A stretch of 64,000 bases of DNA from Minisyncoccota bacterium (GTDB taxonomy: Bacteria; Patescibacteriota; Minisyncoccia; Phycocordibacterales; UBA1006): NCBI GenBank assembly GCA_021734445.1, contig JAIPIY010000002.1:32786-96785 (forward strand), read 5' to 3'. The stretch's first letter is position 1. Every line of letters begins with the position of its first letter. The notes below the pieces were generated by a model. That model worked only from the letters and a program-made list of their open reading frames with translations, had not been told where the DNA came from and searched no databases. The position numbers and the translations under genes were made by a program. Of this stretch, positions 11,653-57,485 are shown piece by piece.

Positions 11653-13332
11653 CTATTTCTTTTTACAGAACAATAATAAAAATCTCAGATCATCATACGT
11701 ATATGCATCCCCTACTATAGATTTCACAGTTCCCAATTTTTGATCATCTGCTTTTTGTAGAGCTTTTTCAATAATCACGATATCTTTTTTAAATGATACT
11801 TTTTTAGGTTGTAAATAATCAATGTCTTTTATCGTAACAGCATCATCTTTGAGAAGTTTTTCTATGTGATTCATAATCGTCTGCACTGTCAGAGATCTTT
11901 CTTTTGCAATAGATTCTAATGTCTGTTTTTGCAGTATGAATTCTTTTGTAGCTTGATACGTTGAAACTTTTTGTTTAGACAATTTTTGCTTCTTTTCTTT
12001 TTTTACTATTTGTAAGCTACCACCAGATTTTTTAATAAAGTCATAATGAAGATTTTGTATTTTTTCTGCATCGGTAATCAATAATCTTTTTACTAATTTT
12101 TCTGATTCTAACTGAAATCGATTATCATGTTGATATACCACAGGATCAACCCGAAGGGCATGTTCGTTATAACCCAATAATTGTAGCCCCTGGATGGATC
12201 GTACCCGTGATAATGCCACGTATCCCTGCCCTGGGACAAAACATTGGGACAAATCCATACATACCGCATCTAATGTCATACCCTGGCTCTTGTGTACGGT
12301 AATAGCCCATGCTAGACGTAGGGGTAATTGGGTTACTTCGGCCAAAACCTTGCCGTCATCGGTAGTCACAGACCATGTTTCTGGGTGTACATAAATACGT
12401 TCCCCTGATCTGGTTTCGACAATAACATCATCATTATCAATCGTTACAATACTACCCAATGTACCATTTACATATTTACCCTCGTTGCTGTTTTTTACGA
12501 ACATTACCAGTGCTCCTTCTTTTAATGAAAGTATTTCGTGGGTCAATAATGTTTTTTTCAAAGTTTCAATATGTTTAGCAGAACCTTTTGATGTCATAGA
12601 AAAAGTTCGCACAGGAGTTTCAAGATTACCTAATTTCTCTTGATTAATTTTATCCACATCAACATTGTGCGTAAATAATAATGGTCTTTCTCCATCGTAC
12701 ACAATTTCTTCTACCGCACATGAAGATAAAATATCATGAGTATCTTCAGAAATTGAACATGATCGTATCTGAGACAAAACGGACAACAATGGTCCATCAT
12801 CCTGACGATATGATTTTTGTAAATAACAAAGATGAATATCTGCGTTTTTCCATGCATCAGACAAAAAAGCATACGTAGTTCCGGTACCCCCAATAGGTGG
12901 TAATTGGAAAAAGTCACCTACAAAAATAACCTGCATTCCCCCAAATGGTTTTTCAGAATTTTTCATTGCCCGTGCCAATAGATCCAAACTGTTTAACAAT
13001 GCGCCCGACAACATGGAAATTTCATCGATGACGAGAACTTTTGTCTCATGAAATCGATCCCAAATATATTTCTTTTCCAACATCATCTCAACATCCCATT
13101 CAGACAGATTTTCTCGAACCCCAATACCTGACCATGCGTGTATGGTCATACCACCAATATGTGTCGAAGCAATCCCAGTAGATGCGGTTACCGCAACAGG
13201 CATATCATGATCGCGTAGATACGCAATATATTGATTAATAACATAGGTCTTCCCTGTCCCAGGGGCGCCGGTCAGAAATACGTTATGTCCCATTTTTAGA
13301 ATATCCAATGTCTGTTCTTGTGTCATGTGCAT
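11653..13332 (-). CDS. Pif1/RecD-family SF1B DNA helicase with a C-terminal HTH-like extension
   Basis: Walker A LTGAPGTGKTYV, motif Ia VTASTGIAS, VIDEISM, and the characteristic Pif1 C-terminal SF1B blocks. A basic helix-rich tail of ~130 aa follows, as in the bacterial Pif1 HTH_40-type extension. Confidence 0.85.
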   Translation of the reverse strand: MHMTQEQTLDILKMGHNVFLTGAPGTGKTYVINQYIAYLRDHDMPVAVTASTGIASTHIGGMTIHAWSGIGVRENLSEWDVEMMLEKKYIWDRFHETKVLVIDEISMLSGALLNSLDLLARAMKNSEKPFGGMQVIFVGDFFQLPPIGGTGTTYAFLSDAWKNADIHLCYLQKSYRQDDGPLLSVLSQIRSCSISEDTHDILSSCAVEEIVYDGERPLLFTHNVDVDKINQEKLGNLETPVRTFSMTSKGSAKHIETLKKTLLTHEILSLKEGALVMFVKNSNEGKYVNGTLGSIVTIDNDDVIVETRSGERIYVHPETWSVTTDDGKVLAEVTQLPLRLAWAITVHKSQGMTLDAVCMDLSQCFVPGQGYVALSRVRSIQGLQLLGYNEHALRVDPVVYQHDNRFQLESEKLVKRLLITDAEKIQNLHYDFIKKSGGSLQIVKKEKKQKLSKQKVSTYQATKEFILQKQTLESIAKERSLTVQTIMNHIEKLLKDDAVTIKDIDYLQPKKVSFKKDIVIIEKALQKADDQKLGTVKSIVGDAYTYDDLRFLLLFCKKK

Positions 13333-17578: not shown

Positions 17579-18898
17579 TTAATAATCTCGAAGCTTTTTA
17601 ATCTTTTCATTATTACGGATTTTATCGTGCACTTTTGCTTCAATTTGACGAATACGTTCTCGAGTTACTCCAAATTCACGTCCGACTTCTTCTAATGTGT
17701 GATTTACCCCATCTAATAGACCATAACGCATTTCAATAATTTTGCGTTCCTTTATAGAAAGATCATTTAATATTTCATGAATTTGATCTGTTAAAATTCG
17801 CTTTGATGCATCCTGGTCTGGTCGTGGAATTTTATCATCTGCGATAAATTCACCCATAGTTGATTTTTCATCATCATCACGACCAACAGGTTCTTCCAAA
17901 GATAATGTATCTTGATTGATTTTTTCAATCATATGTATTTTATCTACTTCGATTCCCATCTCTGTTGCGATTTCTTCTGGCAATGGATCACGTCCTAGAT
18001 CCTGTGAAAGTCTGCGGGAAACTTGTTTATATTTTGAAATAGTTTCCACCATGTGTACAGGAATACGAATGGTTCGTGATTGATCAGCCAATGCACGAGT
18101 AATAGACTGTCGAATCCACCAGGTTGCATACGTTGAGAATTTAAATCCTTTGTTCCAGTCAAATTTTTCAACCGCTTTGAACAATCCAAGATTTCCTTCT
18201 TGAATCAAATCCAACAATGACAAATCAGAGCTACGTCCAACATATTTTTTTGCAATAGAAACAACTAGACGAAGATTCGCTTTTGCCAAAAGATTTTTAG
18301 CCTCATCATCTCCTGCTTCGATACGTTTCGCTAATTCTTTTTCCTGAGACGCTTTAATCAATGGATACTGTCCTATTTCACGCAGATAAATTTGAATAGA
18401 ATCTTGTCCTGTTCCCTCTTCTTTATTATATTTATTGTAATCAGAAGATTCTTCATCAAGACTGAGCAGATTTCCACCCTCTAACACATCAATACCTGCA
18501 ACAGAAAAACGTTCATAGAGATCATCCAAGAAAAGAACATCAGTCTCAACATCAGGAAATGCTTTCAATATTTCATCATAGGTAACAAAGCCTCGTTTTT
18601 TTGCTTTCTCAACCAACACATGAATACGAGCATTTCGCTCTTCAAGCATTTTTTCAAAAGCAAGACTGGTTTTTCGTATCGCAGGGGCTTTCTTTGCTGT
18701 TTTTTTCAAATCTTTTTTAACGACTTTCTTAACAGCCTTTTTGACCACCTTTTTAGGGCTCGCAGGTTTTTTTACTGCAACTTTTTTTGCTACTTTTTTT
18801 ACAGGTTTTTTAACGACTTTCTTAACAACTTTTTTTACTGCTTTCTTTGTTGTTTTTTTCATAACTTTTTTTATTGTTTTTTTCTTTGTTGTTGCCAT
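17579..18898 (-). CDS. rpoD: RNA polymerase sigma-70 (RpoD) with a lysine/alanine/valine-rich histone-H1-like N-terminal tail
   Basis: Regions 2-4 are intact ([32 protein letters not shown], the region 4 [22 protein letters not shown]). The first ~75 aa are [10 protein letters not shown]-type repeats replacing region 1.1. Confidence 0.95.
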
Positions 18899-18902
18899 AT
18901 GA

Positions 18903-20645
18903 TTATGATTCTTTTACGGTTGTTGCTTTTAATGTATTGATACGTTCGGCTAATAAGTGACACTGCGTGACCAGCGATTCGGGTATGGGTCCATGCTTTT
19001 CCGCATCACGCATTTGGGTAAGCGTTTTCGTAAATTCAACTTCGATGATATCCAGCTCTAATGCCAATAAAAATGCTTGTATGTCATCCAAAGCTAACGA
19101 AATTTTTTCTTCTGTATAGGTCATTTCTGCAAACATAAAAGAATCCGAAAGCACACTGGCTAGTTCTTGTTGTAGTGCATCAAACGCTCCTTTTTCTTCA
19201 ACTAATGCGTCATAGGCATCTTTATATTCTTTTGCCGTATCAGGCTGAAAACGTTCTAACCATAAGACTACACCCAAAAAACGTTTTTGCAAAGATATTC
19301 TTCGAGTTGGTGGTTGTTCTGGTGATTGCTGTGAGTCAGTTTTTATTGATTGGGGCACATAGGTTTTTTCCCATGATTGAATATCTTCACGGACCGCAGT
19401 GTCGGAAACCTCCAACACCCGTGCCAAATGTCGAAACGCTCTATCTTTTTCCAGCGCGCCGGCAAGAAATCGAATCAATGGATATACCAAATTACGAGCC
19501 TCTGTAAAACGTTTCTTTTCATCTGCAATAGATTCAAGGCTATTAATGACCACATCAATAAACCGAGGTGCAGTGTCTACAATAGTACGCCATTCTTGTG
19601 GATCTTTTTTTACAATATCCGCAGGGTCATTACCGGGTTCCAATACTACAACTTTTACATCACAGCCCTCTTCTAATGCTAACAAGATACTGCGATTCGA
19701 AGCTTTTTGACCGGCAGAATCCGAATCCAATGCAACGACAATAGTATCAGTGAATCGACGAATCAAAGCTATTTGATCTCGAGTCAAAGCAGTACCAGAT
19801 AACGCAACTGCAGAACGAACACCAGACTGATGTGACATCACCAAATCCATTTGCCCTTCTACTACAACACAGTGTTCATCAATACGCATAGCGTGTTTTG
19901 CTTCGTGGTATCCATATAATATTTTTGATTTATGATACAAAATATTTTCTGGAGAATTCACATATTTTGCATCTGCTTGTTTTGTATCGCTGCCGGGAAC
20001 TTCGATGAATCTTCCTGAAAAACCAACCACCCTACCTTGGGTATCCATAATAGGAAACATCACGCGAGAACGAAATCGATCATACCATCCACGATTACCC
20101 TGAATAACAAGTCCTACCTGATTCATTTCTTCATAAGTATATCCAGCCTTTTCAAGAACATGCGAAACGCTTTGCCATGGTGGCGGAGCGAAACCAATTC
20201 TGAATTTTTGTATGCTATCTTTTATCAATCCTCTTTCTCTGATGTAATGATATGCATCGGGATATTCTTTGAACTGTTGTTGAAAGAATATCGTTGCATG
20301 TTCCAATAATGCACGCAGGCGGTCATTTTCGATTACTGTTTTTTTATCAACTCCAGGAGAATATTTTTCTAATGTAATTCCAGCACGTTCAGCTAATTGT
20401 ACCAGAGCTTCTTTGAATGTTACTCCTTCGATATCCTGAATAAATTGGAATACATCTCCACCGCGATTACATCCAAAACAATGGTACGTATTACGCGCAG
20501 GTGAAACAAAAAATGATGCAGATTTTTCAGAATGAAATGGGCATCGCCCCTTCATATTTCCACCAACGGGATCTAATTTTACATACGAACCAACAACCTC
20601 GACAAGAGAAATTCGTTCTTTAATTGTATCAACAGGTGAAGACAT
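18903..20645 (-). CDS. dnaG: DNA primase DnaG
   Basis: Zinc ribbon [13 protein letters not shown]...HCFGC, TOPRIM ([19 protein letters not shown]), and a C-terminal helicase-interaction domain. A 4-nt gap separates it from rpoD. Confidence 0.95.
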
Positions 20646-20700
20646 AAAAGAAATGTTTTAAATAAGAAGAACACGAACAAAAGCACTGGTTTATATTCAG

Positions 20701-23700
20701 CTATTTTCTTTCTTCTGTAGATGTAGCCTCATCAGGAAATTCAGAAACAGTAAATCCTGGAATAAAATCGTGCACCAAACCTGTACCTGCTGGAATAAGA
20801 TTACCCAAGATAACATTTTCTTTTAATCCTCGGAGAATATCTGTACCACCTTTTACTGCATTGGTAACTAATGTACGAGTAGTGTGTTGGAATGAAGATG
20901 ATGCTAACCAGCTTTTTGTAGAAAGAGATACTTCGGTAATACCCAAAATAACAGTATCTGCAGTCGCAAGAAGACCTCCTGCTTTTTTTACTGGCATATT
21001 TTCTTCTTCGAATTGAATACGTTCAATAATTTCTCCTGATGTAAGACTGGTATCTCCAGGATTTGATACTCGAACTCGAGAAAACATTTGACGAACAATA
21101 ATTTCAACGTGCTTACGTGAAATCGATGCACTGTGCAATTCATATACGCGCAAGATTTCTCGAATAACATATTCCTGAGCTTTTGATTCTCCTCCGTATT
21201 TGAATATATCAAGAACATTAGCAGAACCATCAGTTAATAAATCACCAGCAGAAACAGTGTCTCCTACATCCACCAATGGAACGCGTCGATAATCAACTGT
21301 ATATTCATGTGTTTTCTTTCCTTCTTTTGCTCCACCAGCTTCTTCGAGAACAGTAATAACAACTTCTTTGTCTTTTTTGATGACATCAGAAACAATACCA
21401 TCTACGGTTGCAACAACTGCAGGTGTTTTTGGAATACGTCGTTCTAATACTTCTTCAACACGAGGAAGACCGGTTGTGATATCCAATCCAGATACCCCAC
21501 CGGCGTGGAAGGTACGCAACGTAAGCTGAGTACCCGGTTCTCCAATCGCTTGTGCAGCGACAACCCCAACAGCTTCTCCAACTTTTACTGGTGCTTGTCG
21601 TCCCATATCCAATCCGTAACAGGTAGCACAAATACCATATAATGTTTTACATTTCAAAGGAGAACGAACTACTGCGCTTTCTATATCATTTGATTCGATA
21701 ACTGCAACATCGGCATTAGACAACAGGTGTCCTTTTGCAAATAATACAGTACCTTTTGCATCTGCAATCGGTTCAGCCAAAATACGACCCCATAGATTTT
21801 TTCCAAAAGGAATTTCTACTCCAGAAATAATCAATCGAGAAACAGTTACGCTTTCTTTGGTGCCACAGTCTTGTTCTGTAATAACAATTTCTTGTGCAAC
21901 ATCAACCAAACGTCGAGTAAGATACCCAGCCTTTGCAGTGTTCAACGCAGTGTCAGTCAACCCTTTTCGAGAACCGTGTGTAGTAGTAAAGTATTCAATA
22001 GGAGAAAGACCTTCTTTAAATGATGGCACCACAGGGAACTCGATAATACGTCCAGACGTGTTAATAATCAAACCTTTCATACCTGACATCTGTGCCATGG
22101 AATTGATAGAACCTCGGGCACCTGATGTTACCATGTCATAAGCAGATTCACGATCGATAAGGTGAGCCCCTACCAAAGTTTCAATTTCTTTTTTCGCAGA
22201 TTCCCAGATTTCAATAATTTTCCGATATCGTTCATCATCAGATAATAATCCGTCATCGTATTGAGAACGAATAGTAGATTCAGCAGATCGAGCTTTTTCA
22301 ATAATTGCAGGTTTTCCTTCGGGAACTTTGGCATCATCAAGACCCCAAGTTACCCCAGCTCGTGTTACATATTTGAATCCAAATTGTTTAATTTTATCAA
22401 GAAGCACAGGTGTTCCATCAATACCATATCGTTGAATCAAAAGATCAATCAATTTACTCAGATCTTTCTTTTTAATTTCCTGGTTCATGTAGTGATAATC
22501 ATCAGGAAATACACTGTTGAACAATAGTCGTCCCACAGTTGTTTCAAAAATATTACCTTCGAATGCTGCATATTTTTCTTTTGCTGTACCACGTACCATG
22601 ATTTTTGCTCGCAAATCTACCACAGTATAATCGTATGCCAAAATAGCAGCATTTGGAGATTCAAATATTTTTCCTTCACCCAATGCACCGGGTACTATTT
22701 TTGTCATCCAGTAACACCCCAACACGATATCTTGTGATGGAGTAGTAATAGGAACACCGTCTTGAGGTTTTACTAAGTTTTTATTAGATGCAATCAAAGC
22801 CTTTGCTTCTTGTTGTGCTTCGGTAGACAGCGGCACGTGTACCGCCATCTGGTCACCGTCAAAGTCCGCGTTAAACGCAGTACATACCAATGGATGTACC
22901 TGAATCGCATTTCCTTCTATCAATACAGGATTAAAAGCCTGAATAGACAAACGGTGCAATGTAGGAGCACGGTTCAACAAAACATATTTGTCTTTAATAA
23001 CTTCTTCCAAAATTGACCACACTTCTGGTGCACCTTCTTCGATCAAACGTCCAGCACCACGAATGTTAAAAGCCAATTCTTGATCAAGAATTTTACCAAT
23101 AATAAATGGTCGGAACAATTCCAAAGCCATGTGTTTTGGTAAACCACATTGGTTTAGTTTCAACTGAGGTCCAACAACGATTACAGAACGTCCAGAATAA
23201 TCCACACGTTTTCCAAGAAGGTTTTGTCGGAACAAACCTTGTTTTCCTTTTAAATTATCAGAAAGCGATTTCAATGTTCGACGTTGTGATTGACTCATTG
23301 CCTGAGATCCACCAGCACGACGAATTGAATTGTCGATCAATGCATCGACTGCTTCTTGGAGAATACGTTTTTCGTTTCGCAAAATTACGTCAGGTGCACC
23401 AATTTCTTTTAGTTTAGCCAAACGATTGTTTCGATTTATTACACGTCGGTACAAATCGTTAAGGTCAGATGTTGCATGTCGTCCACCATCCAATGCAACC
23501 ATAGGACGCAATGCGGGAGGGATAATAGGAATAGCTGTCAAAAACATCCATTCTGGACGAGCGTTTGATTTTATCAAAGATCGCACTAATGAAAGTCGTT
23601 TTTCAATTTTCAACTTTTCAGCAGTTTTTGTTTTTTCCAAATCAACAGTCAATTGTTTTTCCAAAGCAACAAGATCAAGTTTTTTGAACATTTCGTATAC

Positions 23701-24357
23701 TGCTTCAGCACCGATACCTGCATCAAACAATGATCCATATTTGATAGACATTTTATGATATTCAGCTTCGGTAAGAACAACACCTTCTGAAATAGCAGCG
23801 ATTTCTTTTTTCGTAGTAGACATTAATTCACGCATTTTTTCTTTGTCGTCTTCATTCAACAATGCTTTCATTTTTGATTTGAATTCATTGTCCAATTCTT
23901 TCAAAATACGATCACGTTCTACTTCGTACATGTTGGTAACAATATATCCAGCAAAATATACAACTTTTTCTAATTGCATTACCGGAACACCCAACAACAA
24001 ACTCATACGAGATGGAATACCTCGCAAAAACCAAATATGCGCAACAGGGCTGGCAAGATCAATGTGTCCCATTCGTTCTCGTCGCACTACTGATTTGGTA
24101 ACTTCAACTCCACATTTTTCACAAATAATACCTGCGTAACGAATACGCTTGTATTTTCCACAGTAACATTCATAATCTTTTTCTGGCCCAAAAATACGTT
24201 CGTCAAAAAGACCACCACGTTCTGACCGTCCTGTTCGATAGTTGATTGTTTCTGGTTTTGTAACTTCACCACGAGACCATTCTCGAATACGTTCTGGAGA
24301 AGCAAGTTTCAAAGAAATTGCATTAAATTCTTGTGTAGTATGTATAGACATAAGCAA
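20701..24357 (-). CDS. rpoC: DNA-directed RNA polymerase beta' subunit
   Basis: NADFDGDQMAVHVP catalytic motif, zinc-binding Cys clusters, bridge and trigger loop blocks. 1218 aa. Confidence 0.98.
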   Translation of the reverse strand: MLMSIHTTQEFNAISLKLASPERIREWSRGEVTKPETINYRTGRSERGGLFDERIFGPEKDYECYCGKYKRIRYAGIICEKCGVEVTKSVVRRERMGHIDLASPVAHIWFLRGIPSRMSLLLGVPVMQLEKVVYFAGYIVTNMYEVERDRILKELDNEFKSKMKALLNEDDKEKMRELMSTTKKEIAAISEGVVLTEAEYHKMSIKYGSLFDAGIGAEAVYEMFKKLDLVALEKQLTVDLEKTKTAEKLKIEKRLSLVRSLIKSNARPEWMFLTAIPIIPPALRPMVALDGGRHATSDLNDLYRRVINRNNRLAKLKEIGAPDVILRNEKRILQEAVDALIDNSIRRAGGSQAMSQSQRRTLKSLSDNLKGKQGLFRQNLLGKRVDYSGRSVIVVGPQLKLNQCGLPKHMALELFRPFIIGKILDQELAFNIRGAGRLIEEGAPEVWSILEEVIKDKYVLLNRAPTLHRLSIQAFNPVLIEGNAIQVHPLVCTAFNADFDGDQMAVHVPLSTEAQQEAKALIASNKNLVKPQDGVPITTPSQDIVLGCYWMTKIVPGALGEGKIFESPNAAILAYDYTVVDLRAKIMVRGTAKEKYAAFEGNIFETTVGRLLFNSVFPDDYHYMNQEIKKKDLSKLIDLLIQRYGIDGTPVLLDKIKQFGFKYVTRAGVTWGLDDAKVPEGKPAIIEKARSAESTIRSQYDDGLLSDDERYRKIIEIWESAKKEIETLVGAHLIDRESAYDMVTSGARGSINSMAQMSGMKGLIINTSGRIIEFPVVPSFKEGLSPIEYFTTTHGSRKGLTDTALNTAKAGYLTRRLVDVAQEIVITEQDCGTKESVTVSRLIISGVEIPFGKNLWGRILAEPIADAKGTVLFAKGHLLSNADVAVIESNDIESAVVRSPLKCKTLYGICATCYGLDMGRQAPVKVGEAVGVVAAQAIGEPGTQLTLRTFHAGGVSGLDITTGLPRVEEVLERRIPKTPAVVATVDGIVSDVIKKDKEVVITVLEEAGGAKEGKKTHEYTVDYRRVPLVDVGDTVSAGDLLTDGSANVLDIFKYGGESKAQEYVIREILRVYELHSASISRKHVEIIVRQMFSRVRVSNPGDTSLTSGEIIERIQFEEENMPVKKAGGLLATADTVILGITEVSLSTKSWLASSSFQHTTRTLVTNAVKGGTDILRGLKENVILGNLIPAGTGLVHDFIPGFTVSEFPDEATSTEERK

Positions 24358-24371
24358 GTGTAAAATTAAAA

Positions 24372-27300
24372 TTAATCGTTATTCAAGACTTCGACATTTG
24401 TTAATGAAACATCCAAAGACAAACCTCGTAGGTATGCCAACAAAACATTAAAGGATGCTGGTACGTGCGGATGTTGTACTGGTTGTCCCTTGATAAGACT
24501 ATCAAAAGCCTGTGATCGTCCTTGAATATCATCCGATTTAATCGTTAACATTTCACGCAATGTATATGCTGCGCCGTAACCTTCCAAAGCCCAGACTTCC
24601 ATCTCTCCGAAACGTTGTCCTCCACCTTGAGATTTTCCTCCCAATGGTTGCTGTGTAATAAGAGAGTAAGGCCCAACTGAACGCATGTGAATTTTGTCTT
24701 CCACCATGTGGTGAAGTTTCAATACATACATGTATCCAACCGCGATATCTTGTTCGAAAGATTCTCCGGTTCGACCATCATATAATTTCATTTTTCCTGA
24801 TTCATTGAATCCAGCTTTTTTCAATTCCTCTTGAATTTCTACAGAACTTGCTCCACCAAACGGAGGCACAATTGCCTGGTAATTCAATGTGTTTGCAGCT
24901 AATCCAAGGTGTAATTCCAGAATCTGCCCAAGGTTCATACGAGAAGGAACCCCCAATGGTGTCAAAATAACATCCACAGGTTCACCATCTTCTGTATATG
25001 GCATATCTTCTTCTGGGAGAATGGTTGAAATAACCCCCTTGTTTCCGTGTCGTCCAGCCAATTTATCTCCAACAGAAATATTTCTCACTTGAGCAACTTC
25101 GATATAGATTTTTTTCAAAATTCCAGATTCTAATTGATCCCCTCGTTCCCGAGAAAATACTTTTACTCCGATAACACGTCCTCGTTTTCCATGTTCCAAT
25201 CGCAATGAAGTATCTTTTACATCGCGAGCTTTTTCTCCAAAGATTGATCGTAGTAATCGTTCTTCTGGCGTAAGTTCTGTTTCTCCTTTTGGTGTAATTT
25301 TTCCAACAAGAATATCGTTTTCTCGAACTTCTGCACCTACGCGAACGATACCATCTTCGTCAAGATTTTTTAGTTTTGATTCCCCTACGTTTGGAATATC
25401 GTGTGTAGTTACTTCTTCTCCCAATTTTGTATCACGTACTACACATTCGTATTCTGCAACACGTACAGAAGAAAAGATGCTGTTTTTCACTAATCGTTGT
25501 GAAAGAATAATCGCATCTTCATAGTTTTGCCCATTCCAACACATAAACGCAACACGAACGTTTTGACCCAAAGCCAATTGCCCCTTGTCTGTTGATGATG
25601 AATCTGCGATAGCATCACCTTTTTTAACTTTGTCACCCAATGACACGATAGGTCGTTGGTGAAACAATGAACTATTGTTTGTACGTGCAAAATTAATTAA
25701 TGCGTAGGTTGTATCTTTTCCTGATTTTGTACCCTTGATAACAATTCGTGCACCGTCAACGGTAATAACTTCACCATCTTCTTTTGCAATAACAACACGT
25801 CCAGTATCTCGGGCAGCTTGTTCTTCCATACCCGTTGCAACAATCGGAGCCTGAGGAATCAGACACGGTGTTGCTTGTTTTTGCATGTTTGAACCCATCA
25901 AGGCACGGTTCGCATCGTTGTGTTCCAAGAATGGAATACAACTGGTTGCGACAGACAAAGCCTGATTTGTTGCAATGTCGATAAAATCAACTTCTCCTGG
26001 AGTAACCATGTGTGGAGCTCCTTTGATACGTACCGCAACTTTTTCTGCTACGATTTTACCAGAAGCGTCATACGCAACTCCGGCATGAGCGACTGTATAT
26101 TTTTCTTCTTCTAATGCATTCAAATACACGATTTCATCAGTAACTTTTCCTTTTACTACTTTTGCGTACGGAGTTTCTAACATTCCATATTCGTTTGTAC
26201 GTGCATATACAGACATGTGCATGATCAAACCGATGTTTGGACCTTCAGGTGTGTGAATAGGACACAATCTACCATAGTGTGAAGGGTGAACGTCACGAAC
26301 TTCGAAACCTGCACGTTCACGGGTAAGACCGCCGGGACCAAGCGCAGATAAAATACGCAAGTGTTCGATTTCATCCAACGGATTTTCCTGGTGCATGAAC
26401 TGTGACAATTGGTTTGTCGCAAAGAATTCTTTGATACGAGCCTGCAACGGTCGTGGGTTTACAATGTTTACAGGTAATACAGTTTCTCCATCGATCGTAG
26501 ACATACGATCTTGGATATTTCGTTTCATCTGTGCCATACCAACACGTACTTTTTGTTGGAACAATTCTCCTACATATCGTACACGTCGTGAACCAAGATG
26601 ATCAATATCATCTTCTTTTGCACCAGGAGTATTATTCAAAGAAACCATTCGGTCGATAATCATCACCAAATCGTCCAATGACAAGATTTTATTTTCTAAT
26701 TCTTTTTCATCAAGACTTAGGTCAAAATATTTTTGAAAACGAAAACGCCCAACACGAGAAAGGTCGTATCGTTCTGGACTAAATACTGATTCGATAAATT
26801 CACGAGCGTTTTCAACAGTCGCTAATTCACCATCTCGTAATTTTTTATGCATTTCAAGGTATGCATCATCTGCTGTTTTTACAGAATCTTTTTCTAAACA
26901 AGCCTTGATTACCGCCTGAGTTTCAGGATTAGTAAACCGTGCAAGCATTTTTTCATTAGTAGTCAAACCGAAAACTCGCAATAATGAGGTAATATGGAAT
27001 TTTCGTTTTTTATCAATACGCACATGTATCAAATGATCCATGTCAGATTCAATTTCGATCCATGCACCTCGTGCAGGAATGATTTTTGCTCCGAAACGGA
27101 TTCCTTTTTTTGTTTCATCTGAAGTAAAGAATACTCCATAACTTCGTGCCAACTGAGCAACAACAACACGTTCAATACCATTGGTAATAAATGTACCATG
27201 AGGGGTCATCAATGGAACATCAGTTAGAAACATTTCTTGTTCTTTTGAACTACCAAGAGCTTTGTTGGTAAGACGAACACGCGCCTTTAAAGGAGCTTCA

Positions 27301-27575
27301 TAAGACAATTTATTTGCCTTTGCATAATATTCATCATGTTTTGCTTCGCCGACAGTAAGTTCAGTAAATTCTAGTTTGAATTTTTTTCCAGAATAATCTT
27401 CGATGGGAGAAAATTCCTTGAACACATCTGCGATACCATCACGCAAAAACCATTCATGTGATGCGACTTGATTCTCTACTAGGTTTGGTACCGGAACCAT
27501 TGGCTTTCGATATTTTGAAAAGAATTTCTTTTCAACAACTGCACTTTTTTTCTTTGACATACAATACAAAACCAA
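24372..27575 (-). CDS. rpoB: DNA-directed RNA polymerase beta subunit
   Basis: Conserved beta blocks (the rifampicin region, GDKLAGRHGNKG, and the C-terminal clamp). 1067 aa. A 14-nt gap separates it from rpoC. Confidence 0.98.
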   Translation of the reverse strand: MVLYCMSKKKSAVVEKKFFSKYRKPMVPVPNLVENQVASHEWFLRDGIADVFKEFSPIEDYSGKKFKLEFTELTVGEAKHDEYYAKANKLSYEAPLKARVRLTNKALGSSKEQEMFLTDVPLMTPHGTFITNGIERVVVAQLARSYGVFFTSDETKKGIRFGAKIIPARGAWIEIESDMDHLIHVRIDKKRKFHITSLLRVFGLTTNEKMLARFTNPETQAVIKACLEKDSVKTADDAYLEMHKKLRDGELATVENAREFIESVFSPERYDLSRVGRFRFQKYFDLSLDEKELENKILSLDDLVMIIDRMVSLNNTPGAKEDDIDHLGSRRVRYVGELFQQKVRVGMAQMKRNIQDRMSTIDGETVLPVNIVNPRPLQARIKEFFATNQLSQFMHQENPLDEIEHLRILSALGPGGLTRERAGFEVRDVHPSHYGRLCPIHTPEGPNIGLIMHMSVYARTNEYGMLETPYAKVVKGKVTDEIVYLNALEEEKYTVAHAGVAYDASGKIVAEKVAVRIKGAPHMVTPGEVDFIDIATNQALSVATSCIPFLEHNDANRALMGSNMQKQATPCLIPQAPIVATGMEEQAARDTGRVVIAKEDGEVITVDGARIVIKGTKSGKDTTYALINFARTNNSSLFHQRPIVSLGDKVKKGDAIADSSSTDKGQLALGQNVRVAFMCWNGQNYEDAIILSQRLVKNSIFSSVRVAEYECVVRDTKLGEEVTTHDIPNVGESKLKNLDEDGIVRVGAEVRENDILVGKITPKGETELTPEERLLRSIFGEKARDVKDTSLRLEHGKRGRVIGVKVFSRERGDQLESGILKKIYIEVAQVRNISVGDKLAGRHGNKGVISTILPEEDMPYTEDGEPVDVILTPLGVPSRMNLGQILELHLGLAANTLNYQAIVPPFGGASSVEIQEELKKAGFNESGKMKLYDGRTGESFEQDIAVGYMYVLKLHHMVEDKIHMRSVGPYSLITQQPLGGKSQGGGQRFGEMEVWALEGYGAAYTLREMLTIKSDDIQGRSQAFDSLIKGQPVQHPHVPASFNVLLAYLRGLSLDVSLTNVEVLNND

Positions 27576-55001: not shown

Positions 55002-55295
55002 TTATTTCTTTTCTTTTCGTTTTGGAGATGGAGATTTCTTTGGAAGAACATTTTTTTTCTTTCCTTCGATGATACCCTCTTTTACCAAATGATTGAAAAT
55101 AGTATCAGACATCTGAGCACCCTGAGCTATCCATTCTTGTACTTTTTCTTTCTTTACTGCAAAATTTCCAAGTTTAGGATTATAAGAACCAAGAACCTCT
55201 AAAAACTTTCCGCTTTTTGGGCCGTTTTGTTTTTCTGTTACAACCACACGAAATTGTGGGTCATTTTTTCGCCCTGTTCTTTGTAATCGAATCAT
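55002..55295 (-). CDS. rpsP: 30S ribosomal protein S16 with a lysine-rich C-terminal tail
   Basis: MIRLQRTGRKNDPQFRVVVTEKQNGPKSGKFLEVLGSYNPK aligns with the S16 N-terminus. The start is the ATG at 55295 (or 55301); the track ORF is over-extended to 55430. Confidence 0.9.
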   Translation of the reverse strand: MIRLQRTGRKNDPQFRVVVTEKQNGPKSGKFLEVLGSYNPKLGNFAVKKEKVQEWIAQGAQMSDTIFNHLVKEGIIEGKKKNVLPKKSPSPKRKEKK

Positions 55296-55415
55296 TAACA
55301 TACGGAGAGATAGTATCACGAGCCAACAAAAAAAGCAAGCTTGCGTCAACGCTGATATACAAAGGTCATAATCTACCCTATCACCAAAAATCGTATTGTA
55401 TGGTATACTAGGGCC

Positions 55416-57485
55416 ATGAAATCTAAACAATCAGGAAATTCTGAACACAAAAAAAATGCTGGCAAATCAGCCCCATATCAAAAAAATAAAAAACCAAACC
55501 GCACAAAAGTAGGATCAAAAAACCTTTTTCAGTCTCAATCTGCACCAAAGAAAAAAATAGACAACAATAAACCTAAAGAATCAAAAATCGCTGAATCAAA
55601 ATTCCGCATTGGAAGAAACAGTATTCCATTCATAGTGATCAAAGGACAAAAATCATCAGACGATATTGTTATTGATATTCCTTCAGATCTTTCTCATCAG
55701 GCATTACATGGAGATATCGTATCGGTATCCTATGAACAACAAGGGTCATCATACGAAGTTACCAAACTAGATATTGTGCGTCGTGCAAAAACAGGAATAG
55801 TAGGAACACTGGCTAAACATGGGCAAGAATATACTATTATTCCCGATGATGAACGTATGCACATGCGCGTATCTATTGCTGAATCAGATATCAATGATGC
55901 AAAATTAGGTGAGAAGGTCTACATAGAAATCAAAGAATGGTACCAATCGCATATTATTGGTTCGGTACGCCAAGTATTAGGAAAACCAGGAGAAAATAAT
56001 GCTGAAATGATTGCATTCGCTATGGAGCATGGTTTTGATATTCATTACCCCCAAGATGCCCTGGACGAAGCAGAAAAATTAGATGAACAAACTATTGCAG
56101 ACGAAGCACCAAATCGAAAAGATATGCGTGGTGTAGGAACATTCACTATCGACCCCGAAGATGCAAAAGATTTTGATGATGCTCTGTCATTGAAAATATT
56201 AGAAAATGACACCTATGAATTAGGCATACACATTGCTGATGTTTCTTTTTATGTACAAGAAGGTAGCGCCCTGGACCGCGAAGCCCAGGAACGTGCAACA
56301 TCAGTATATCTGGTAGACCGCACTATTCCCATGCTACCGGAAAAACTTTCGAATGAACTTTGTAGTTTAAAGCAAGATGTTGACCGTCTGGCAATGTCAG
56401 CAATTTTTACTATCAAAAAAGATGGTACAGTATTAGACTCATGGTTTGGCAGAACGATTATTCGGTCTCAAAAAAGATTTACCTATGCAGAAGCTCAAGA
56501 TGTATTGGACACCAAAGAAGGTCCTTTTGCAAATGAGCTACAACATATTTTAGCAATCTCGAAACATCTAGAAAAAGGTCGCCAAGAAAATGGTGCCCTG
56601 ATTATGGATTCAGACGAAGTAAAATTCGTATTAGATGAAACGGGAAAACCTATTCGCGCTGCAGTAAAAGAACGATTGGCAACCATGAAACTCATCGAAG
56701 AATGTATGCTTTTGGCAAACCGAAGGATTGCAGAACACATGAGCAAAGAAAGTGGAGAAAATATTTTCGTATATCGTATTCATGAACGACCCAACGAAGA
56801 AAAGATGCACAATCTTATTATTTATCTTGGACAATTGGGATATACCATTTCTTCAAAAAATGATGTCGTAGATCCACGGGATTTAAATGCTCTTATACGA
56901 AGTGTTTCTGACAAAGATGCACAATCGATGATTCAAACTGCTATTGTGCGATCTATGGCAAAAGCAATCTATACTACGGACAATGTAGGTCATTATGGAT
57001 TAGGTTTTGAACACTATACCCATTTTACATCTCCTATTCGACGTTATCCAGATATTTTGGTACACCGATTATTAATGTATCATACCCAAGGTAAACCCTT
57101 ACCAAAAAATGCATTACAATTTTACCAAGAACAATCCATGCATTCTTCACGCCGAGAACGAGACGCTCAAGAAGCTGAATGGGATTCTATTAAATACAAA
57201 CAAGTAGAATATATGAGCACCCGTATTGGAGAAACTTTTGACGGAGTTGTTTCTGGGGTATCACAAATGGGTATCTTCGTGCAAGAAAGAACCACTCGCT
57301 CCGAAGGATTAATCCGCATGCGACATTTGCCAGGTAATGTTGAATACAATGACGCGACGCGAACTATTCAAAATGGAAAAGGAGAAACGGCATTCTTTAT
57401 TGGACAATCTATTACCATCCGAGTCTCAGCCACGAATCAAATACGAAAAACTATTGATTATGATCTTGTAGCTGTCGAAGCATAA
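55416..57485 (+). CDS. rnr: Ribonuclease R (RNB-family 3'-5' exoribonuclease) with a lysine-rich N-terminal extension
   Basis: Cold-shock/OB domains, RNB catalytic motif DPEDAKDFDDALS, and a C-terminal S1 domain. The first ~65 aa are K/N/S-rich. Confidence 0.9.
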   Translation: MKSKQSGNSEHKKNAGKSAPYQKNKKPNRTKVGSKNLFQSQSAPKKKIDNNKPKESKIAESKFRIGRNSIPFIVIKGQKSSDDIVIDIPSDLSHQALHGDIVSVSYEQQGSSYEVTKLDIVRRAKTGIVGTLAKHGQEYTIIPDDERMHMRVSIAESDINDAKLGEKVYIEIKEWYQSHIIGSVRQVLGKPGENNAEMIAFAMEHGFDIHYPQDALDEAEKLDEQTIADEAPNRKDMRGVGTFTIDPEDAKDFDDALSLKILENDTYELGIHIADVSFYVQEGSALDREAQERATSVYLVDRTIPMLPEKLSNELCSLKQDVDRLAMSAIFTIKKDGTVLDSWFGRTIIRSQKRFTYAEAQDVLDTKEGPFANELQHILAISKHLEKGRQENGALIMDSDEVKFVLDETGKPIRAAVKERLATMKLIEECMLLANRRIAEHMSKESGENIFVYRIHERPNEEKMHNLIIYLGQLGYTISSKNDVVDPRDLNALIRSVSDKDAQSMIQTAIVRSMAKAIYTTDNVGHYGLGFEHYTHFTSPIRRYPDILVHRLLMYHTQGKPLPKNALQFYQEQSMHSSRRERDAQEAEWDSIKYKQVEYMSTRIGETFDGVVSGVSQMGIFVQERTTRSEGLIRMRHLPGNVEYNDATRTIQNGKGETAFFIGQSITIRVSATNQIRKTIDYDLVAVEA

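Follow-up and report, generated by a model that had tools for sequence, protein, structure and literature searches.

How is the primary sigma factor of a Minisyncoccota bacterium built at its N-terminus, where nearly every second residue is a lysine, and what would such a terminus be for? The question is raised by the rpoD gene in a stretch of 64,000 nucleotides (the window) from the assembly GCA_021734445.1 (contig JAIPIY010000002.1, positions 32,786 to 96,785 of the forward strand). The original prediction described the first ~75 residues of RpoD as a basic KK-repeat tail of the histone H1/AlgP/Hc1 kind, proposed that the tail replaces region 1.1 of the sigma factor and saw in it one case of a wider pattern of basic tails on nucleic-acid enzymes. 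The analysis presented here indicates that the tail is a translated, RpoD-specific addition to a complete sigma factor, in which charge rather than sequence is kept.

Residues 1-76 of RpoD contain 34 lysines and a single aspartate. Lysine makes up 7.1% of the window's proteins, and the binomial probability of at least 34 lysines in 76 residues is 2e-19. Taken to residue 85, the segment has 35 Lys, 1 Arg and 2 Asp/Glu, a net charge of +34, and the remaining 354 residues have a net charge of -11. The lysines are arranged in KK pairs with a period of four (KKxx), with autocorrelations of 0.58, 0.45 and 0.34 at lags 4, 8 and 12, and in the underlying DNA a degenerate 12-nt unit is repeated in tandem (67-81% matches). 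The spacers are Val/Ile-rich rather than Ala/Pro-rich (Val 18%, Ala 12%, plus Thr and Pro), hydrophobic residues account for ~28% of the tail, and the motif SPKK occurs once ([ST]PKK is present in 16 of 117 relatives). AlphaFold2, run with a 48-sequence alignment, gives residues 4-77 as coil at a predicted local distance difference test (pLDDT) score of 30-43. The basic KK-repeat tail that had been described is thus real, and it is predicted to be disordered. Its helical hydrophobic moment at 100 degrees is 0.54, compared to 0.31 ± 0.05 for shuffled sequences; on contact with a polyanion the tail could plausibly be induced to form an amphipathic helix, even though the AlphaFold2 prediction is coil. 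A poly-A slippage or frameshift site in the tail DNA was considered and rejected, the longest A run of 7 being too short for programmed slippage. A 106-residue Phe/Leu-rich open reading frame (ORF) antisense to the tail (18620..18940, plus strand) is the reverse-complement shadow of the AAA/AAG codons and not a gene.

The protein that carries the tail is a group 1 (primary) sigma-70 factor, RpoD/SigA. Pfam finds regions 1.1, 1.2, 2, 3 and 4 in this order in ORF 17579..18898, with PF00140, PF04542, PF04539 and PF04545 each above its gathering threshold. All the best NCBIfam matches are RpoD models. The top one is the Firmicute-type PRK09210, a 370-residue model aligned over residues 86-439, and TIGR02393 (RpoD_Cterm) covers residues 200-439. 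Both scores miss the RpoD equivalog cut-offs (418 bits vs 572 for PRK09210 and 337.8 vs 354 for TIGR02393), a shortfall that is expected of a divergent phylum. The best solved relatives are SigA chains, namely C. difficile 7L7B, the 368-residue 8X6F and B. subtilis 7CKQ, with E values down to 5e-105; the 8X6F and 7CKQ chains align from RpoD residue 94 onward.

Region 1.1 is an acidic, DNA-mimicking module, which prevents free sigma-70 from binding DNA and controls access to the cleft of RNA polymerase. It has not been replaced by the tail. Sigma70_r1_1 (PF03979) is found at residues 87-146 with 47.5 bits, compared to a cut-off of 22.5 (E 1.8e-12), and its counterpart in C. difficile SigA aligns with it. 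In the AlphaFold2 model residues 79-139 form a folded helical module with helices at 79-102, 107-113 and 121-133 (pLDDT 69-79), residues 142-162 are disordered (pLDDT <50), and the usual helices of sigma regions 1.2-4 follow. The net charge of region 1.1 is -4, and that of residues 87-165 is -8. Pfam and AlphaFold2 both find region 1.1, and the linker behind it is acidic; the tail has therefore been added to a complete SigA of the conventional Firmicute type, with region 1.1 intact, and the claim of a replacement is contradicted on all three counts. The comparison with Firmicute SigA (7CKQ and 7L7B, 368-390 residues) agrees with this: the protein aligns end to end from residue 86-94 to 439, region 1.1 included and with no large non-conserved insertion. 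The Firmicute chains have ~10-25 residues ahead of the point that matches residue 86-94, whereas here there are ~85 extra residues with a net charge of +34.

A tail of this kind could be an artefact of start-site choice, if the protein began at Met84 and the K-rich stretch were an untranslated leader; this we regard as very improbable. Three observations weigh against a translated tail. The GenBank protein from the same metagenome-assembled genome (MAG), MCF7831576.1, called by the Prokaryotic Genome Annotation Pipeline (PGAP), is exactly the 356-residue Met84 product, and the one recorded source of the exact 439-residue product is a Logan assembly. A homologue from Lloydbacteria, OGZ11819.1, is likewise annotated tail-less, at 360 residues compared to 454 in gene calls. 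Shine-Dalgarno motifs are found at 2 of 50 gene starts in the window, which leaves the upstream ATG unmarked; because these motifs are almost absent, the rpoD start cannot be judged from ribosome-binding sites. Widespread leaderless mRNAs were also considered and rejected, since genes with a -10-like (TATAAT-like) hexamer 4-14 nt before the start, 5 of 50 in the window, are too few. As to the GenBank calls, we infer that homology-guided start calling by PGAP tends to trim lineage-specific extensions toward the 370-residue RpoD model.

The evidence from the reading frame itself points the other way. Four collinear sequences, that of the window and those of the relatives L001, L081 and L082, have RpoD cores that are 98-99% identical, and their codons were compared. 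In the six pairs the synonymous to non-synonymous changes at tail lysine codons are 11:1, 6:0, 10:1, 13:1, 3:0 and 14:1, and the probability of 11 synonymous changes in 12, as in the first pair, is ~2e-6 under neutrality. The corresponding ratios are ~6:25 for the other tail codons and ~90:6 for the core. In the relatives P0001, P0003 and P0004, 33-34 of the 34 lysine positions are kept, as opposed to 15-21 of the 42 spacer positions. Since the lysine codons change synonymously while the spacers turn over freely, the tail is, judged by its codons, translated and under purifying selection for lysine. In addition, 4 nt separate the stop codon of dnaG from the rpoD ATG that follows it. L001 and L081 lack Met84, and a methionine at the junction of the tail and region 1.1 is present in 13 of 117 relatives (11%, compared to 27% expected by chance) and at no fixed position. 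A conserved internal start that would give a tail-less sigma was rejected on these grounds. Dual initiation, with a long and a short form, may occur in the strain of the window.

The tail was found in every relative surveyed. Among the best 120 protein relatives 117 could be anchored, and all 117 have a tail of 56-124 residues with 30-51% Lys and a net charge of +22 to +56. When the frame was extended upstream on the DNA of 77 species-representative genomes, it was open and had a start codon in all 77 (ATG in 71), and the basic tail measured 41-148 residues with a net charge of +14 to +54. The start proposed originally and the presence of the tail across relatives have therefore both held. The relatives bear the names Paceibacterota, Nomurabacteria, Taylorbacteria, Zambryskibacteria and Lloydbacteria, and the window's RNase R and S16 products match proteins of a Candidatus Pacebacteria MAG exactly. 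Many third-party annotation (TPA) MAG records titled 'uncultured Candidatus Saccharibacteria bacterium' (L001, L004-L007 and others) also have an RpoD 70-98% identical to the window protein; the Saccharibacteria labels on these records look generic or wrong. A more distant search with the RpoD core alone against 1.8 billion cluster representatives yielded numerous RpoD clusters, 45-68% identical, that have basic tails, one of them with the Candidatus Lloydbacteria RpoD, as well as tail-less forms of 355-370 residues and forms with acidic extensions. Since all three kinds were found, N-terminal elaboration of sigma factors is, as far as these clusters indicate, common, and the polycationic form recurs.

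Composition of the spacers follows the guanine-plus-cytosine (GC) content of the genome. Across the 77 genomes (29-62% GC) the tail's Ala+Pro+Gly content rises with GC (rho = +0.72), its Val+Ile+Asn+Thr content falls (rho = -0.80), and Lys is partly swapped for Arg as GC changes. Low-complexity sequence that arose by replication slippage in an A-rich tract, and is translated and tolerated without a specific function, would account for the degenerate period-12 repeat of the DNA, for the wide range of tail lengths and for spacers that are nearly neutral and follow GC content. It would not account for the retention of the tail in every relative examined, for the strong purifying selection on the lysine codons, for the narrow net charge among close relatives (+34 ± 4) or for the fact that neighbouring genes in the same genomes have no comparable tail, and we consider it decidedly unlikely. 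The comparisons rather indicate that what selection preserves in the tail is its charge and composition rather than its sequence.

The resemblance to histone H1 holds for composition. Like the C-terminal domain of H1, AlgP, Chlamydia Hc1/Hc2 and the N-domain of Streptomyces DdbA, the tail has ~40-45% Lys, is of low complexity and is virtually free of acidic residues (1 Asp in 76); the likeness probably extends to physical behaviour. The tail differs from these proteins in its hydrophobic Val/Ile spacers in place of Ala/Pro, in having one SPKK only and in showing no detectable homology, and it differs from stand-alone H1-like nucleoid proteins in being an appendage of an enzyme subunit. When the tail alone was scanned, no Pfam family matched at E <= 1, the linker-histone, Hc1 and HC2 models included, and a sequence search against solved PDB chains gave no meaningful match. 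One relative, P0107, carries a precomputed entry for PF07382, which we take to be Pfam HC2; this is consistent with a compositional match. Homology to H1, Hc1, HC2 or AlgP was rejected, and of the label 'histone H1/AlgP/Hc1-like' only the lysine-rich, low-complexity composition survives.

Selection on charge only would imply that the tail binds a polyanion electrostatically and non-specifically. We hold with moderate confidence that the tail would serve as such a tether, most likely to duplex DNA; non-specific tethering to DNA had also been suggested in the original prediction. DNA is put forward as the likeliest partner because of what similar segments do elsewhere: the lysine repeats of Streptomyces TopA bind DNA, stabilise the enzyme-DNA complex and raise processivity, and lysine repeats have been noted in HrdB and in B. 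pertussis RpoD (PMC5714199); the H1-like domain of DdbA binds and condenses DNA (PMC3643593). The nearest precedent for a function is mycobacterial sigma-A: its first ~60 residues are basic and an acidic stretch follows (PMC11656743), and deletion of the N-terminal extension of M. tuberculosis sigma-A lowers steady-state transcription ~100-fold (PMC11888270).

The primary sigma of Paceibacteria (Patescibacteria, or Candidate Phyla Radiation, CPR) would then consist of a disordered polycationic tail, a folded region 1.1, an acidic linker and regions 1.2-4. The tail probably originated by expansion of a 12-nt unit, after which the lysines would have been fixed while the spacers drifted with genomic GC. 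The tether would hold both free sigma and the holoenzyme on the nucleoid. In the E. coli sigma-70 holoenzyme, region 1.1 occupies the channel for downstream DNA, from which it is displaced when DNA is loaded; for this reason a tail at the N-terminus of region 1.1 would be able to touch flanking DNA and to make extra contacts with it. Such contacts may alter the promoter search, open-complex stability or sigma recycling. The tail would supplement region 1.1 and not substitute for it.

Several points count against DNA tethering. The effect in mycobacterial sigma-A was reported without a mechanism (PMC11888270), and the mycobacterial precedent has no folded region 1.1. Disordered tails rich in lysine have RNA and polyphosphate among their ligands as well; the H1-like AlgP is reported to be a component of polyphosphate granules (PMC9239181). 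The strong helical amphipathicity of the tail would also suit an anionic membrane. The tail might thus be directed to another polyanion or surface, be it nascent or ribosomal RNA, polyphosphate granules or condensates, or an anionic membrane contacted through amphipathic helices, and so localise sigma or RNA polymerase. Such a target seems improbable to us. The hydrophobic moment far above that of the shuffled controls, a content of hydrophobic residues that is uncommon in an H1-type tail that binds only DNA, the case of AlgP and the lysine-rich proteins reported to bind polyphosphate in E. coli (PMC12345225) speak for it; the AlphaFold2 model, which has coil and no helix in the tail, and the best-studied lysine repeats on DNA enzymes, which act on DNA, speak against it.

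It is likewise unlikely that the tail is a regulator within the sigma factor or the holoenzyme, which would fold onto the acidic region 1.1 and linker or onto acidic surfaces of RNA polymerase and thereby tune autoinhibition, core binding and sigma release. The acidic module (region 1.1 plus linker, net -7 ± 1.5) does adjoin the tail, the basic-then-acidic order is shared with mycobacterial sigma-A (PMC11656743), and more positive tails go with more negative modules, but weakly (rho = -0.37 over 117 relatives, with no correction for phylogeny). The tail, at +34 ± 4, has ~5 times the charge of the acidic module and leaves the whole protein at ~+24. Moreover, region 1.1 and the linker are no more acidic in tailed than in tail-less sigmas, the median charge among diverse RpoD cluster representatives being -10.5 with a basic tail and -12 without one. 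Charge compensation between the tail and the acidic module was rejected on the weak correlation, the mismatch in magnitude and the equal acidity of the tail-less sigmas.

DNA tethering also allows a bolder version, in which the housekeeping sigma of Paceibacteria doubles as a nucleoid-bound histone-like protein, the tail overrides autoinhibition by region 1.1, and promoters are searched for by sliding or from a pre-loaded state. We consider this speculative and rather unlikely. If it were true, a histone-like sigma might have evolved in adaptation to an ultra-small cell that has very few transcription factors, and would have escaped notice because homology-guided annotation trims the tail.

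The coordinates of the rpoD elements and of the other features mentioned are collected in Table 1.

Table 1. Positions of rpoD elements and other features in the window
Feature	Coordinates	Strand	Basis or remark
rpoD/sigA ORF, 439 aa (long form; coordinates include stop codon)	17579..18898	minus	ORF list, Pfam, NCBIfam
KKxx-repeat polycationic tail, residues 1-76	18671..18898	minus	composition, period, AlphaFold2
Tail/region 1.1 junction, extending to ~residue 85	nt 18644	minus	
Met84 ATG, GenBank-annotated start, giving tail-less 356-aa product	18647..18649	minus	MCF7831576.1
Sigma region 1.1, residues 87-146, retained, net acidic	18461..18640	minus	Pfam PF03979, AlphaFold2, SigA alignment
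Acidic disordered linker between regions 1.1 and 1.2, residues 147-164	18407..18460	minus	charge, pLDDT
Sigma regions 1.2, 2, 3 and 4, residues 165-439	17582..18406	minus	Pfam, NCBIfam, PDB matches
dnaG (primase)	18903..20645	minus	Pfam Zn_ribbon_DnaG, DNAG_N, Toprim
RNase R basic N-terminal extension, residues 1-65	55416..55610	plus	17 K in 63 aa, ahead of CSD2/RNB/S1 domains
S16 basic C-terminal extension	55002..55060	minus	ends GKKKNVLPKKSPSPKRKEKK

The junction of dnaG and rpoD is also found in relatives (macromolecular-synthesis operon synteny). Two very large minus-strand ORFs, 24372-27575 and 20701-24357, were read as rpoB and rpoC; with dnaG and rpoD these presumed genes form a contiguous, co-oriented series with short gaps (17579-27575, minus strand). 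The genes of RNA polymerase beta and beta' thus appear joined to the dnaG-rpoD pair.

Basic tails do not look like a general trait of the lineage. RpoD, RNase R and S16, the three proteins that had been grouped together, do have basic termini, and among the 53 ORFs of at least 100 residues in the window they alone have a terminal 30-residue charge of at least +8. The evidence for a common trait is nevertheless weak because the three tails evolve differently. The N-terminal extension of RNase R (gene 55416..57485) is common to a 79%-identical relative, P0272, whereas over 120 RNase R relatives the median N-terminus is 17 residues long with a net charge of 0, and a net charge of at least +8 is found in only ~9%. 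Basic RNase R N-termini occur sporadically (for example in P0272, P0280, P0281 and P0297, among P0271-P0390), most of the proteins starting no more than 10-20 residues before the first cold-shock domain; this distribution suggests that short basic RNase R tails were repeatedly gained and lost. In S16 the extension is a sequence-conserved motif, GKKKNVLPKKSPxxKRKE.K, of ~19 residues with a net charge of +7, and the C-terminus has a net charge of at least +5 in 94% of 111 relatives; it is probably an ordinary ribosomal-protein extension. The true S16 gene, 55002-55301 on the minus strand, encodes 99 residues (MLMIRLQ...) identical to an NCBI S16 record. The mechanically called S16 ORF, 55002-55430 on the same strand (142 residues, TTG start), is over-extended and overlaps the start of RNase R; the divergent intergenic region between rpsP and rnr is ~115 bp long.

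Around rpoD itself (± 3 kb in 80 related genomes, 434 ORFs), 60 termini have a charge of at least +11. RpoD's own make up 59 of these, and the remaining one belongs to a doubtful ORF. DnaG, RpoB and RpoC have no such basic tail. Elsewhere in the window a single further segment is strongly Lys-rich, an internal linker and not a terminus, in a PIF1-like helicase with a C-terminal HTH_40 (11653-13332, minus strand; residues ~431-455, 9 K in 25). With RNase R tails sporadic, the S16 tail a short motif and the scan of 434 ORFs yielding practically only RpoD, the lineage trait was rejected, and by this comparison the tail is a feature specific to RpoD.

The nearest known counterparts are the lysine repeats catalogued in actinobacterial HrdB, TopA, HupS, Ku and FtsK and in B. 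pertussis RpoD (PMC5714199, PMC7398561). In PMC5714199 such a repeat is defined by one or two lysines with 3-5 neutral residues between them, at least 5 repeats, at least 10% Lys and at least 27% Ala; the tail, with its spacing of KK plus two residues and 12% Ala, falls outside this definition. Like the repeat of HrdB, it is a low-complexity, lysine-rich segment on a primary sigma, predicted to be disordered or an induced helix, and repeats of the HrdB kind bind DNA in TopA and HupB. Unlike that repeat, its unit is KK plus two Val/Ile/Thr-rich spacers rather than K1-2 plus 3-5 Ala/Thr. The difference in spacers looks GC-driven, because the spacers of high-GC relatives shift toward Ala/Pro/Gly, and the Val/Ile-rich KKxx repeat looks like the form that the Ala-rich lysine repeats of high-GC bacteria take at low GC. 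The position differs as well: the tail is N-terminal to region 1.1, and the repeats of HrdB are located after the HrdB N-terminal domain. The genome here has 37% GC, whereas lysine repeats were proposed to be a trait of GC-rich genomes (PMC5714199).

Mycobacterial sigma-A offers the second comparison. Its extension, which comprises residues 1-205 in M. tuberculosis and has a basic stretch of the first 60 residues in M. smegmatis (PMC11888270, PMC11656743), is also a disordered part of a housekeeping sigma with a basic extreme N-terminus followed by an acidic stretch, and it strongly affects how much transcript is made in vitro. It is, however, described as wholly disordered and non-homologous to region 1.1, whereas a folded, Pfam-recognisable region 1.1 lies here between the basic and the acidic parts. 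The charge density is also much higher here (~45% Lys).

Lysine-repeat or basic disordered extensions on primary sigmas are already known from Actinobacteria and Bordetella; in the literature searched we found no report of sigma-factor tails in Patescibacteria, CPR or Parcubacteria. New here are the position ahead of an intact region 1.1, the tetrapeptide unit with hydrophobic spacers, the extreme charge density and the occurrence in a low-GC lineage. The finding extends lysine-repeat sigmas from GC-rich Actinobacteria to a CPR genome of 37% GC and contradicts the suggestion that such repeats are a GC-rich trait; the same charge device is apparently spelled with Val/Ile spacers at low GC and with Ala/Pro at high GC. 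Since homology-guided start calling strips the tail from GenBank proteins, as in this MAG and in Lloydbacteria, surveys of annotated proteins under-count such tails, and annotated proteomes may systematically under-report them. For sigma-factor biology, a polycation of ~5 times the opposite charge is fused directly to region 1.1 and conserved in all the relatives examined (117 proteins and 77 genomes) from a large uncultured lineage, which amounts to a natural experiment on how the gating by region 1.1 would tolerate, or exploit, an adjacent DNA-binding tether.

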